Of a DNA stretch of 64,000 bases, positions 4,359 through 62,560 are shown in pieces. The notes beneath the pieces are model-generated. The model saw only the letters and a program-made list of their open reading frames with translations. It was not told the origin of the DNA and ran no database searches. How positions within the stretch are numbered: the stretch's first letter is position 1; every line of letters begins with the position of its first letter. The position numbers were made by a program, and so were the translations under genes. Source of the stretch: Octopus vulgaris (taxonomy: Eukaryota); NCBI GenBank assembly GCA_951406725.2, contig OX597827.1, positions 47,368,001 through 47,432,000 on the forward strand. The letters are read 5' to 3'.

Positions 4359-7063
4359 ACAGAGGAAAGACAGAGGAATATTAATGAAACTATCTTCAGT
4401 GTTGCTGTATTTGTAGTTATCATTGCAGTTACAGTCGTTATTCATAATATTGCTGTTGTTGTTATTGTATTGAATTTTCTGTTGCTAATGTTGCTGATGC
4501 CAATTAGTAATTATAGGAATAAAACAAAAATAAATAGAAAAGAAAGCAGTCACATAATAGCAACAATTCAAATATAATGTAAAGAAAATATCACCGCCAG
4601 AACATTCACCACAGCTTGCCACCCCTTCTTAATGTTTCTCTTTGTCTTCATCCTTCCATTAATTTTGTAAATGGGTTCCACCAAGGCCTTTGGAATATTT
4701 AATGCCAACAGGGAAATTAAAATAGAATAATTGCTGAGTAATTCTTCTTGTGGATTGATGATGATGTGTGTATGTATGCATAATGGTGTGTTTGGTACTT
4801 TGTTTTCAGATTCTCATTCTTGTCATGTTAAAAAAAATTGAAACAAAAAAGAAGCAGAAAAGAAACAGCATTTATCTTTTCTATAGACTTATGAGTAGAT
4901 GGGAGAATCGGTAGATCGTTATAAAAATTTGCTTTTAGGGCCCTTGAATTTCGGAGTTGAAATACCACCCAGATATGTGTTTTCTTCCCCATAACAGAGT
5001 GGTGCTGTAAATATTTTTGACTACCTACCTACCTACCTACCTACCTATCTACCCGTATTCCGGTTCTTTGCATCCTGACTTCTAATATCACCGTAATGTA
5101 CATGGGAGGTAGACTTAATCCGCTGTCATATTTTACGCTATCACCAGACACTTTGAGGGATTTAAGGGAATTACCTAAGTTAAAAGCTATTGGGCCGGTT
5201 TTCCCTTTTGAGGATAGTTACTTCTTTGCTCCCCTCCCTTTGCTCTCAATAGGTCAGGGATAATGGCTCTCCATTGACCAAAAGGTAAAATTATTCAAAC
5301 TCAACCAAAACAAATATCTTTATTGGATGCAATCAACGAATTTAGAACAGACAATGTAAAGCTAACAAAAATTATTTTTCGTTTCTTGTTTGTCTATTTA
5401 TGCTTTGTTTTTGTTCGCATTATATATTTTTTGTAGCTATGAGGGAAAAAGAATGATGTTGTTTTTTGCGTATTTCAAAGGTTGGTGTTTATTCAATAAT
5501 TTTCTAATTGTAAATTTGCATTGTCGAGATCTGTTCGTGCTGTGGCACACTGCAGTGTAAGAATCGCCTATAATCTTATGAGGTGATATTTAAATATGAC
5601 TCTAGGTTCAATGACTGAAAGAAGAGAAGAAACAGTAGAGCATAGAAAACTATTTTGGACGCTACGAAAAGTAAATGCTTTATAGAATCTTTAGAAAATA
5701 AAATCATTTACGAAATTGGAGCGATATTTCTCCGAAAGGATGGATGAAAAATTTAGTAGAAAGAACGTTGGAGTATACAGAACGAAAAAAGATTGCCAAG
5801 TCAAGAAAAAGGGCCAAAGTTAAAACGGAAGTGATGAAGATATATCAGATGTGCGTGACATGTAGTGGCGGTTAGATAGTGATGATAAAACTGAAGGGTA
5901 TATACCATTTAGAAAAAGGCCTAACTCTTCTACTCTCTCCCTCTCTCTCTATCTCTGACCTCTTACCCTCACTCTATGCATATATACGTACAACCACGCG
6001 CATATATATATGTATATGTTTATATATATATATATGTACATATATATGTATATATATATATGTATGTATATATACAATTGTACCTACACACATACAGTTA
6101 TATGAAAAGGGAGAGATAAAATAGAAAGATAGAGACAGATAGATAGTTACAAGCATTGATGATAGATAGGCTGAGAAAGAGGTACAAATTGTCTTCGACA
6201 ACACCAACATGGCGTGTGTAACGAAACAAATCAAAATATAAAAAGAAATTAAATTTTACAAGTTGTCAAGAAATCGATGAACAGCAAAAGAAAAACTAAA
6301 CAAAAACATGCAAACGTAAAATGAATAAATAAATTCCTCAGAGCCAATTTGCATGTTATATTATTACTTTTGGGGGATTCCACTAATTATTTTGTTATTG
6401 TTCCCTAATTAAGTAAAACTTTTTACGAAACAAGTTGAAAAATATAAATGGGAATAAGCAGAAAAAATAATTCCAAACAAACACGAAATTCCCACAAAAT
6501 ACACAAATAAATGTTAAACAATAATGCAAAGTAGTCGAATTTATTTGTTTATTTGTTTAATTATCTAGTTTATTAATTTCTTTGTGCGCACCAAGTGGTT
6601 GCTAAAGGGTTCTGAAAATTTTCTTGAAATACATTTGTTTTAGCTGACAAAATCAAGAAACCATTGAACAAAGATAAGAAGAGATTCTTAATGATTTCAA
6701 TTTCACTTGTGGTTGGTTCATTATTTATTTATTTATTCATTTATTTATTTATTTAAGCACTAAGAAATTCGCTTTGTATTTAAGAGGAATACCTCACATC
6801 TTCGTAGTTCCAGTTTCAGTTCTACAGTATACCACATTAGTCAGATGTCATCCTTTGTGGACCAAGTATGACCGACGCTTTTGAAGTAGAATCTCAAAAG
6901 CATAAACAGTGGAAGCACATATATATTACGCACGCGTGCGGGTGTATTAAAGTCTATACATACATATATACATACATATATACATACATATATACATATA
7001 TACATACATATGTATGAATCTGTTTATCTATCTGTCATATATATATATATATATATATATGTA

Positions 7064-51831: not shown

Positions 51832-52427
51832 AAGGCCCGTAATTTTTGGTAAGGGGACTAGACGATTAGATCGACCTCAGTACACAACGGGTACTTAATA
51901 TATCGACCCCGAAAGAATGAAAGGCAAAGTCGACCTCAGCGGAATTTGAACCCAGAACATAAAAACAGACGAAATACCCCTAAGCATTTCGCCCGGCGTG
52001 CTAACGTTTCTTAGTTCTTTATTGCCCATAATGGGCTACACACAGAGGGGACAAACAAGGACAGGCAAATGGATTAAAGCGATTACATCGACCTCAGTGT
52101 GTAACTGGTACTTAATTTATCGACCCTGAAAGGATGAAGGGCAAAGTCGACCTCGGCGGAATTTGAACTCAGAAAGTAACGGCAGACGAAATATCTATTT
52201 CTTTACTACCCACAAGGGGCTAAACACAAAGGGACAAACAAGGACAGACACATGGATTAAGTCGATTATATCGACCCCAGTGCGTAACTGGTACTTATTT
52301 AATCGACCCCGAAAGGATGAAAGGCAAAGTCGACCTCGGCGGAATTTGAACTCAGAAAGTAACGGCAGACGAAATACCGCTAGGCATTCCGCCCGACGTG
52401 CTAACGTTTCCGCCAGCTCAACGCCTT
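51832..52427 (-). mobile_element. SINE family B with triplicated core
   Basis: Three copies of TCGACCC.GAAAG.ATGAA.GGCAAAGTCGACCTC.GCGGAATTTGAAC at about 51903, 52120 and 52303. Confidence 0.88.
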
Positions 52428-58058: not shown

Positions 58059-58290
58059 TGAATTTGACAAGGTCAGTAAATGTAAAGACTTGCTAATAGA
58101 AATTGAAAACATGTGGCATCTGAAGGTGACTACAGTACCAGTGATTGTAGGATCTCTAGGGATGATAAAAAGCAGGTACTGAAATCCATTGGGAAATGAT
58201 ACCAGGCTTACCATCCCTACAGGAAGTGCAAAAAATCGTGTTAACTGGAACGACTCATGTACTGAGAAGAGCATTATCACTGTGAAAACA
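58059..58290 (+). mobile_element. R4/Dong endonuclease C-terminal fragment joined to (AAT)n
   Basis: EFDKVSKCKDLLIEIENMWHLKVTTVPVIVGSLGMIK, then IPGLPSLQEVQKIVLTGTTHVLRRALSL*. Confidence 0.8.
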
Positions 58291-60261: not shown

Positions 60262-60468
60262 AGGATAGGAGAGAGAAAGAAACACTTTTGCACTTTTGAA
60301 GGAAAAGAAAGATGGTCACGTGAGGAAAAGAAAGACGGATGATGGTCACGTGTGAGCAACCAGAGAGAGAATGAGAGAGTAAACGGGAAAAAGCAGAGAG
60401 AGCGATAGAGAGAGAGAGAGAGAGGGAAAGAGATAGAAAATGATGAAAGGGACAGATAGAAAACAGTG
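60262..60468 (-). repeat. left arm of a diverged inverted repeat (partner 62394-62560)
   Basis: The reverse complement contains CACTGTTTTCTATCTGTC and GTTGCTCACACGTGACCATCATCCGTCTTTCTTTTCCTCACGTGACCATCTTTCTTTT. Confidence 0.8.
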
Positions 60469-60700: not shown

Positions 60701-60740
<40 letters not shown>

Positions 60741-60960
60741 TCAATATAGGGTGGCAAAAAAATTTTGTAGAATTTTTTTGCCACCAGCGGCCTAGTGGGA
60801 AAAAATTAAATAGTCATAGACCATTTATAAGTTCAACATCACAATCAAGGAACGGCCATAATAGGCCATTCACCCACTAGAAATAACAGCCAAAGCTTCA
60901 ACCGCAAAATAACATTAATTCCGCAAACCAGGAGAAAATTAAAAAAACATTTACCCTGTA

Positions 60961-61067
60961 ATTTCTTATACGATGCACCGTTTCATCTCTTGTTTAATGG
61001 TAAACTAACCTGATTAAATTAAATCAAGCCAATCTTCCATAGGCCCTTAGATTCGTCAGTAAGAAAT
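60961..61067 (-). ncRNA. type I hammerhead ribozyme, copy 1
   Basis: Reverse complement of copy 3; predicted cleavage between 60969 and 60968. Confidence 0.85.
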
Positions 61068-61448
61068 AACCAGATCGGAACAGATATTTTCACGAGGCAC
61101 TTCTGTCCCTGCCTCGGCAATATCTGACCTAAAATTTTCAAATCATCGCACTCGCGCCAAATTTATCGGCAGCAAATAAATATAAGCCGCCGATTCCATT
61201 ACGGAATCAACCAGAAAATTCATAATTAATCAATATAGGGTGGCAAAAAAATTTTGTAGAATTTTTTTGCCACCAGCGGCCTAGTGGGAAAAATTAAATA
61301 GTCATAGACCATTTATAAGTTCAACATCACAATCAAGGAACGGCCATAATAGGCCATTCACCCACTAGAAATAACAGCCAAAGCTTCAACCGCAAAATAA
61401 CATTAATTCCGCAAACCAGGAGAAAATTAAAAAAACATTTACCCTGTA

Positions 61449-61555
61449 ATTTCTTATACGATGCACCGTTTCATCTCTTGTTTAATGGTAAACTAACCTG
61501 ATTAAATTAAATCAAGCCAATCTTCCATAGGCCCTTAGATTCGTCAGTAAGAAAT
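61449..61555 (-). ncRNA. type I hammerhead ribozyme, copy 2
   Basis: Reverse complement of copy 3; predicted cleavage between 61457 and 61456. Confidence 0.85.
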
Positions 61556-61986
61556 AGCCAGATCGGAACAGATATTTTCACGAGGCACTTCTGTCCCTGC
61601 CTCGGCAATATCTGACCTAAAATTTTCAAATCATCGCACTCGCGCCAAATTTATCGGCAGCAAATAAATATAAGCCGCCGATTTCTAGTGGGTGAATGGC
61701 CTATTATGGCCGTTCCTTGATTGTGATGTTGAACTTATAAATGGTCTATGACTATTTAATTTTTTCCCACTAGGCCGCTGGTGGCAAAAAAATTCTACAA
61801 AATTTTTTTGCCACCCTATATTGATTAATTATGAATTTTCTGGTTGATTCCGTAATGGAATCGGCGGCTTATATTTATTTGCTGCCGATAAATTTGGCGC
61901 GAGTGCGATGATTTGAAAATTTTAGGTCAGATATTGCCGAGGCAGGGACAGAAGTGCCTCGTGAAAATATCTGTTCCGATCTGGCT

Positions 61987-62093
61987 ATTTCTTACTGACG
62001 AATCTAAGGGCCTATGGAAGATTGGCTTGATTTAATTTAATCAGGTTAGTTTACCATTAAACAAGAGATGAAACGGTGCATCGTATAAGAAAT
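61987..62093 (+). ncRNA. type I hammerhead ribozyme, copy 3
   Basis: ATTTCTTA-CTGACGA-ATCT-[60 nt]-AGAT-GAAA-CGG-TGCA-TCG-TA-TAAGAAAT. Perfect 8-bp stem I, intact CUGANGA and GAAA core, stems II and III, GUA cleavage triplet (cut after 62085). Confidence 0.88.
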
Positions 62094-62211
62094 TACAGGG
62101 TAAATGTTTTTTTAATTTTCTCCTGGTTTGCGGAATTAATGTTATTTTGCGGTTAAAGCTTTGGCTGTTATTTCTAGTGGGTGAATGGCCTATTATGGCC
62201 GTTCCTTGATT

Positions 62212-62270
<59 letters not shown>

Positions 62271-62393: not shown

Positions 62394-62560
62394 CACCGTT
62401 TTCTATCTGTCTCTCTCTCCCCTCTTTCTCTTTTACTCTCTCTCTTTCTCTCGTTGCTCACACGTGACTATCGTCCATCTTACTTTTCCTCACGTGACCA
62501 TCTTTCTTTTTCCTACACGGACGTTTAAAAGAACGGACGTGTTTTTTCTCTCTCCCTTCT
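62394..62560 (+). repeat. right arm of a diverged inverted repeat (partner 60262-60468)
   Basis: CACCGTTTTCTATCTGTC...GTTGCTCACACGTGACTATCGTCCATCTTACTTTTCCTCACGTGACCATCTTTCTTTT. Confidence 0.8.

Follow-up and report, generated by a model that had tools for sequence, protein, structure and literature searches.

An octopus retrozyme whose best-conserved hairpins adjoin two fixed points where a Penelope-type enzyme likely starts copying

What kind of molecule is represented by the hairpin-rich DNA at positions 61681-62216 of the 64,000-nucleotide stretch of the Octopus vulgaris genome analysed here (contig OX597827.1, positions 47,368,001 to 47,432,000; hereafter, the window)? An earlier note on this DNA, made from its letters alone, had proposed that the whole unit folds into hairpins whose G-U pairs work only on the ribozyme strand, and that selection acted on a single-stranded, viroid-like RNA of this polarity and not on a DNA satellite. 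We identify it as a single unit of a non-LTR retrozyme of animals, a young and protein-free retroelement; the class is already known, and the element is a retrozyme of known kind, not a viroid. Its best-conserved hairpins adjoin the two fixed points where a Penelope-type enzyme likely starts copying.

The 536 bases of 61681-62216 (+ strand) amount to 1.10 copies of a repeat of 489 bp with a GC content of 36.8%, and they form the plus arm of a larger insertion, with the 3′ end at a point that we call site A. Joined to this arm head to head is a minus arm of 1.94 units (60733-61683, − strand), 99.4-99.7% identical to the plus arm, the 3′ end of which (60733) defines site B; the junction is a 3-base overlap, ATT, common to both arms (61681-61683). 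The whole head-to-head insertion is embedded in (TA)n, seen on the left at 60709-60732 and on the right at 62217-62266. Among frames of at least 170 aa, the only ones considered, none in the element is free of stops, and copies of the unit differ by indels, in keeping with a non-coding element. On both sides, the insertion is flanked by the members of a 111-bp inverted pair that are 86% alike (window positions 60303-60413 and 62402-62510), and the pair is itself repetitive, with high depth in sequencing runs; the retrozyme may have been inserted inside this older inverted element. Elsewhere in the window lie a 183-bp unit in two copies that are 89% alike (52015-52376) and a frameshifted fragment adjoining an (ATA)n run (58059-58290), the translations of which look to us like the C-terminal end, with the endonuclease, of a LINE of the Dong/R4 type.

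Each unit carries one type I hammerhead motif, and three hammerhead cores are found within the window. The copy on the plus arm (61988-62092, + strand), predicted from its sequence, the invariance of its core and covariation, consists of stem I (61988-61994/62086-62092), the core CUGACGA (61995-62001), stem II (62002-62005/62066-62069), GAAA (62070-62073) and a near-palindromic stem/loop III (62074-62083), with cleavage predicted after GUA at 62085. Inserted in stem II is a long hairpin of 3+14 bp with 5 G-U pairs (62015-62056, + strand). The second and third copies lie on the minus arm (60962-61066 and 61450-61554, both − strand). An Rfam search of the window at the gathering threshold gave no match, probably due to the long stem II. 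When the 2.8-Gb genome was searched with a pattern for the 3′ half of the hammerhead, 1,874 exact matches were recovered as against 0 for the reversed control, and a short-stem-II hammerhead pattern with the same stem III as the retrozyme had 0 matches genome-wide.

Copies of the retrozyme are dispersed over many contigs, and three lineages were sampled. Lineage 1 comprises 79 loci, namely the 40 best-scoring and 39 taken in positional order along one contig; lineage 2 comprises 23 distinct loci (seven duplicates having been set aside) with a 479-bp unit, about 78% alike to lineage 1; and lineage 3, an older sister retrozyme lineage with 1,920 first-look candidates, is represented by 30 loci chosen by their B end, with a 470-bp unit that is about 61-66% alike. 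Between lineages 1 and 2, 12 of the 14 core and cleavage-site positions of the hammerhead are near-invariant (in 77-79 lineage-1 and 22-23 lineage-2 loci), and those that vary are N7 and the cleavage base. In 11 representative sequences there are two both-sided pair changes in stem I and one in stem III, each double change being one event, so that the shuffle control overstates their significance. Stem I and stem II differ in lineage 3, where the core is mostly UUGANGA and loop III is palindromic; this loop is palindromic or near-palindromic in all three lineages. The antisense unit has no CUGANGA core, and the predicted minimum-energy fold of the unit does not contain the catalytic hammerhead. 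On the evidence of the motif, the + strand RNA is predicted to self-cleave via a type I hammerhead.

Can the strand on which selection acted be read from the fold itself? All 10 helix pairs listed by the earlier note are present in 61681-62216 as written, and the departures from Watson-Crick pairing in them are, in nine of nine cases, G-U on the + strand. The expectation of a non-random sense-strand fold was likewise borne out: the circular minimum free energy is −147.5 kcal/mol as against −110.6 ± 5.7 for 60 dinucleotide shuffles, none of which is as low (z −6.5). The expected strand asymmetry in folding energy was not. Folded as a circle, the antisense strand reaches −111.5 against −74.1 ± 5.1 for its shuffles (z −7.3), and because it is equally non-random relative to its own shuffles, the 36-kcal gap between the strands is compositional. 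Similarly, allowing G-U pairing on the + strand brings a gain of −36.3, no different from the gain in 25 shuffles (−37.7 ± 5.8), since this strand of the unit holds 180 U and 108 G against 129 A and 72 C. With the energy asymmetry compositional, G-U counts become weak evidence of strand. In a lineage-3 unit the order of the strands is reversed, the antisense folding better than the sense relative to shuffles (z −6.9 versus −3.1), and neither G-U content nor folding energy can be taken as proof of strand. A strand-neutral stem scan gave a G-U:A-C ratio of 10:1, with a shuffled G-U share of 0.70, and a second strand-neutral count gave 6:1 against 556:251; neither is significant alone. The G-U excess is mostly the yield of a G+U-rich strand, with a modest signal that G-U is tolerated as an intermediate on the + strand.

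The polarity reading is right nonetheless, on grounds stronger than G-U counts, and selection on a single-stranded RNA of + polarity is borne out by the invariant ribozyme core, by fewer differences in helices, by G-U exchanges and by compensatory changes. Together, the 10 named helices, the hammerhead helices and the 14-bp hairpin of stem II, which with its 5 G-U pairs was missing from the earlier list, cover 230 of the 489 positions. Lineages 1 and 2 differ at 32 of these 230 positions as against 59 of the other 259 (p=0.014). One-sided helix transitions between the two lineages exchange Watson-Crick and G-U pairs eight times, and Watson-Crick and A-C pairs twice, both at helix ends, compared with 26:24 for the same two kinds among post-insertion singleton mutations; one G-U to A-C double change was also seen. 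Variants found in at least three lineage-1 loci avoid paired positions (26:41 versus 122:91 for singletons, p=0.011). Pair-keeping changes show no enrichment among shared lineage-1 variants (9:17 versus 47:75, p=0.83), and within lineage 1 alone there are no double (covarying) changes.

Individual helices are conserved to differing degrees. A multibranch domain closed by CUAGUGGG/CCCACUAG (61685-61773, + strand), which has compensatory changes in lineage 3, contains two hairpins (61694-61715 and 61738-61758, + strand) with site A (61727) between them. Just 5′ of site B (61832 on the plus arm) is a 15-bp hairpin (61780-61815, + strand), one pair of which reads G-C/G-U/A-U and another C-G/C-G/U-A in the three lineages. 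The middle hairpins, GAUUCCG, CGGCGGC, GAUUUGAA and CAGAUAUU/CGAGGCA, occupy 61846-61973 (+ strand). CGAGGCA and GAUUUGAA are kept in lineage 2; CAGAUAUU/AAUAUCUG is broken there, and GCGGAAU and GAUUCCG are eroded, so that three of the 10 listed helices are poorly conserved.

With lineages 1 and 2 only, covariation in the region between A and B is not above that of shuffles (37/500). It emerges in three non-ribozyme helices when lineage 3 is included, its pairs having been read from motif anchors in 19 segments; MAFFT alignments of the three lineages had shifted register and were therefore left out of the pair counts. In the CUAG helix, pair 5 has changed from U-A to C-G and pair 7 from G-C to U-A, each in 15 of 19 lineage-3 segments, and pair 6 is A-C in 7 of 19. 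In the GGUGGC hairpin, pair 4 follows a G-C/G-U/A-U series (19/19) and pair 6 has changed from C-G to U-A (18/19), and the hairpin before site A has at least one compensatory change, G-C to U-A (17/19). Compensatory events are few, as there are three lineages only. The earlier claim that the whole unit folds stands as regards the existence of its helices, goes too far as regards their reach, since together with those of the hammerhead they cover the 230 positions given above, and falls as regards a single conserved fold. Selection on the rest of the fold is partial: with three listed helices broken or eroded in lineage 2, the conserved structure comes down to the ribozyme and the domain around the two ends. 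The three-lineage covariation places conserved structure at what would be the two start sites of copying.

It is informative to examine these two sites in light of how the copies end. Among the 136 arms of the 79 lineage-1 loci, 64 have their 3′ end at unit positions 123-137, counted from the cleavage site (A), 60 at positions 224-241 (B) and 12 elsewhere; A and B are 105 nt apart, and (TA)5+ adjoins 123 of the 124 A/B ends. Head-to-head pairs number 54, in 53 of the 79 loci: 46 are A+B, one is B+B, none is A+A and seven are unresolved, an excess of A+B among the 47 resolved pairs with p 7e-13. The positional sample alone yields 20 A+B and one B+B, and the 13 pairs of lineage 2 comprise 11 A+B, one A+A and one unresolved, such that each arm uses a different one of the two sites in 57 of the 59 resolved pairs of these lineages together. 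In lineage 3, for which loci were chosen by the B end, 17 of the 30 also have an equivalent A end, which lies on the other strand. The 5′ ends of arms are, by comparison, uniform round the unit (p=0.44), and only one of 136 lies within 5 nt of the cleavage site. More than half of the arms (80/136) are longer than one unit, up to 10 units.

Judged from the sequences, this footprint is that of a Penelope insertion. Insertions of endonuclease-bearing (EN+) Penelope-like elements (PLEs) show a tail at one end and an inverted 5′-truncated copy (PMC8557442), and in vitro a PLE has two reverse transcription start sites, with both strands cleaved and extended (PMC11167929). The tail of 30-40 bp published for PLEs is not matched, as the A-B interval of the retrozyme, at 105 nt, is about three times longer. 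In the octopus genome there are two intact PLE families of 781 and 775 aa, both with RVT_1 and GIY-YIG domains; each terminates in (TA)n and has a pair of alternative 3′ ends, spaced by about 40 and 32 nt, respectively. The survey scored 150 of 6,136 candidates, and other PLE families may exist. The 775-aa family, in which 76 of 76 scored matches are 100% identical in protein, is probably active now, and several of its copies (L160-L169) occur in head-to-head pairs. The young 781-aa family (L100-L115, L117) has an upstream 479-aa frame, a 40-nt tail and a terminal repeat (pLTR), about 500 bp long, in which there is an atypical hammerhead-like motif with the core UUGAUAA. Other hammerheads, with a long stem II and a palindromic loop III, are present in the flanks of the PLE loci L112 (− strand, near 6598 of the oriented locus), L073 and L118 (− strand). 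Among 50 GIY-YIG loci and 10 second-family loci, no PLE pLTR resembling the unit was found, and the strong unit matches at these loci all belong to retrozyme fragments that lie separately in the flanks. The A-B domain has been kept through 35-40% sequence divergence, without homology to the PLE termini examined.

These observations are best accommodated, with a probability that we put at about 0.78, by a + strand RNA that likely circularises and whose conserved hairpins likely work for the ribozyme and in docking a PLE reverse transcriptase, not in viroid-like replication. The + strand RNA would self-cleave, possibly as a dimer, and then circularise; a PLE endonuclease would nick both strands of a (TA)n target; the two nicks would prime reverse transcription on a single RNA, one at A and the other at B; each resulting cDNA would go round the unit up to 10 times before halting at random; and microhomology would join the ends of the two cDNAs. 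More tentatively, and at somewhat less than even odds, a PLE dimer might act on one circular RNA, with the covarying hairpins 5′ of A and B as its landing sites, and rolling-circle cDNA synthesis might then be primed by both nicked strands of the TA repeat, with starts that are obligatorily different.

The template could instead be linear, a multimeric RNA transcribed from a donor array and left uncleaved, with the same PLE footprint. We consider this unlikely, but it deserves to be taken seriously: in vitro, a PLE inserted without hammerhead cleavage and uncleaved RNA was the main substrate (PMC11167929), and the A/B rule needs no circle. The variants within loci speak on both sides. At 287 of 322 minor-allele sites the two arms have the same allele. 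A linear template is disfavoured by 27 rare variants, each of which every copy in both arms of its locus carries, and by arms that pass over the cleavage site as many as 10 times. Furthermore, of 151 singleton variants in the 40 loci examined, 135 are confined to a single locus, and hence donor heterogeneity is not seen to be copied between these loci. On the other hand, the arms differ at 35 of the 322 sites, and a second allele is common to at least two copies at 39 sites in 14 loci with long arrays (among 33 loci with at least four copies of some site). Neither the 35 discordant sites nor the 39 second-allele sites are predicted by a single circle without later reshuffling.

It is also worth considering that the G-U pairs might have arisen by ADAR editing of A-U pairs, fixed by reverse transcription, although we regard this as improbable. 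None of the sequencing runs that contain the unit is recorded as RNA; contigs of five runs guessed to be RNA cover it, where contigs cannot show circles or ends. At some contig ends in two of these runs, X5 and X10, from two studies, nearly every difference from genomic copies seen in a by-eye comparison is an A>G within a cluster on the + strand, as in 9 A>G in 30 letters relative to the genomic copy L137, which suggests edited RNA. Read-through of inverted loci could also give such clusters, and host transcripts that span inverted arms would undergo editing in any case. By inference, head-to-head insertions in host transcripts would form long double-stranded RNA, like inverted Alus. Unique flank has no cover in either of two RNA-guess runs, an observation that slight DNA carry-over could mimic given the many genomic copies. 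As to fixation, A>G is raised among rare locus-fixed variants (7/26 versus 11/213 singletons), but so is T>C (5/26), and at several G-U pairs the alternative is G-C or C-G, which editing cannot produce. The first 40 loci showed A<->G at 12 sites versus C<->T at one, an excess that was lost with 95 loci. On the internal branches of the 95-locus tree, A>G changes number 14 and T>C changes 12 (p=0.19 against singletons), and A-to-I fixation as the main source of G-U pairs was rejected.

A further possibility is that an antisense template folds back and primes itself, giving the head-to-head arms, a route proposed for rotifer PLEs (PMC3846280). Four of the 54 junctions are nearly symmetric, but 2.3 of 54 would be expected by chance, and the other 50 join unrelated phases, as for two separately primed cDNAs; we find this explanation very doubtful. 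Doubt is greater still for a DNA satellite or hairpin-rich minisatellite spread by local unequal crossover, with the fold a by-product of inverted repeats. The antisense does fold as well as the sense relative to shuffles, long arrays hold reshuffled alleles, and 10.64898/2026.07.22.740005 discusses a model of local amplification. Against this, copies are dispersed over many contigs, their 3′ ends are fixed and strand-specific with random 5′ ends, and the ribozyme core is invariant on one strand; the fixed A/B ends in three lineages largely refute the satellite reading. Equally hard to credit is a viroid-like replicon with RNA-to-RNA copying and only occasional integration. It would suit the size and branched fold, and RNA-RNA replication has been raised as a possibility for retrozymes (PMC7229834), but the antisense lacks a CUGANGA core, the defined helices hold only about half of the unit, and the very many genomic copies bear a retrotransposon footprint. 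The earlier note was correct in setting a DNA satellite aside, and its term viroid-like finds no support in any replicative sense.

Hammerhead viroids of the Avsunviroidae carry ribozymes in both polarities and have no DNA stage. The octopus element is similar to them in size, in its branched predicted fold and in possessing a hammerhead; unlike them, it is genome-encoded, has a type I ribozyme on one strand only and spreads by reverse transcription. Its nearer likeness is to the non-LTR retrozymes of metazoans (Cervera and de la Pena 2020, PMC7229834), which likewise consist of non-coding units in tandem, with a single type I hammerhead per unit, a GC content under 50%, a predicted fold that pairs with itself and co-existing PLEs. 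The octopus unit is set apart by its length (489 nt, versus 220-245 in coral, 350-390 in mussel and 330-350 in axolotl) and by the long hairpin inserted in stem II, and neither fixed two-site ends nor head-to-head arms are described in the results and discussion of that paper. Vertebrate retrozymes, with consensus lengths of 51-972 bp, are likewise non-autonomous partners of PLEs (Li, Clavereau, Pollet 2026, 10.64898/2026.07.22.740005). Their link to PLEs is pLTR homology and co-occurrence, and their arrays are thought to grow locally, whereas our search gave no pLTR homology for the octopus element, which is tied to PLEs by its insertion footprint. With EN+ PLEs, as described in PMC8557442, PMC3846280 and PMC11167929, the octopus retrozyme shares AT-rich or microsatellite targets, an inverted 5′-truncated copy and an optional tail at one end that is the interval between two reverse transcription start sites; it differs from them in having no ORF, a tail of 105 nt versus 30-40, and arms that are multimers of one unit. 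In literature listings we found no account of this retrozyme family, nor of the A/B rule in any retrozyme, although the supplements of PMC7229834 and of 10.64898/2026.07.22.740005 may list it.

What is new here is a negative strand-energy test, a negative editing test and covariation over three lineages. The first of these shows that counting G-U pairs or comparing the energies of strands is a poor test of polarity where a sequence is G+U-skewed. More broadly, the route by which animal retrozymes return to the genome is proposed, without demonstration, in the retrozyme papers cited here, and the octopus retrozyme gives this step a countable footprint in the form of complementary start sites in 57 of 59 resolved pairs, along with a small RNA domain that shows covariation and lends itself to mutation in an existing in vitro PLE assay. 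If a PLE dimer does use the hairpins 5′ of A and B as landing sites, the A-B domain would be a structure-only cis signal by which a protein-free element hijacks PLE enzymes.
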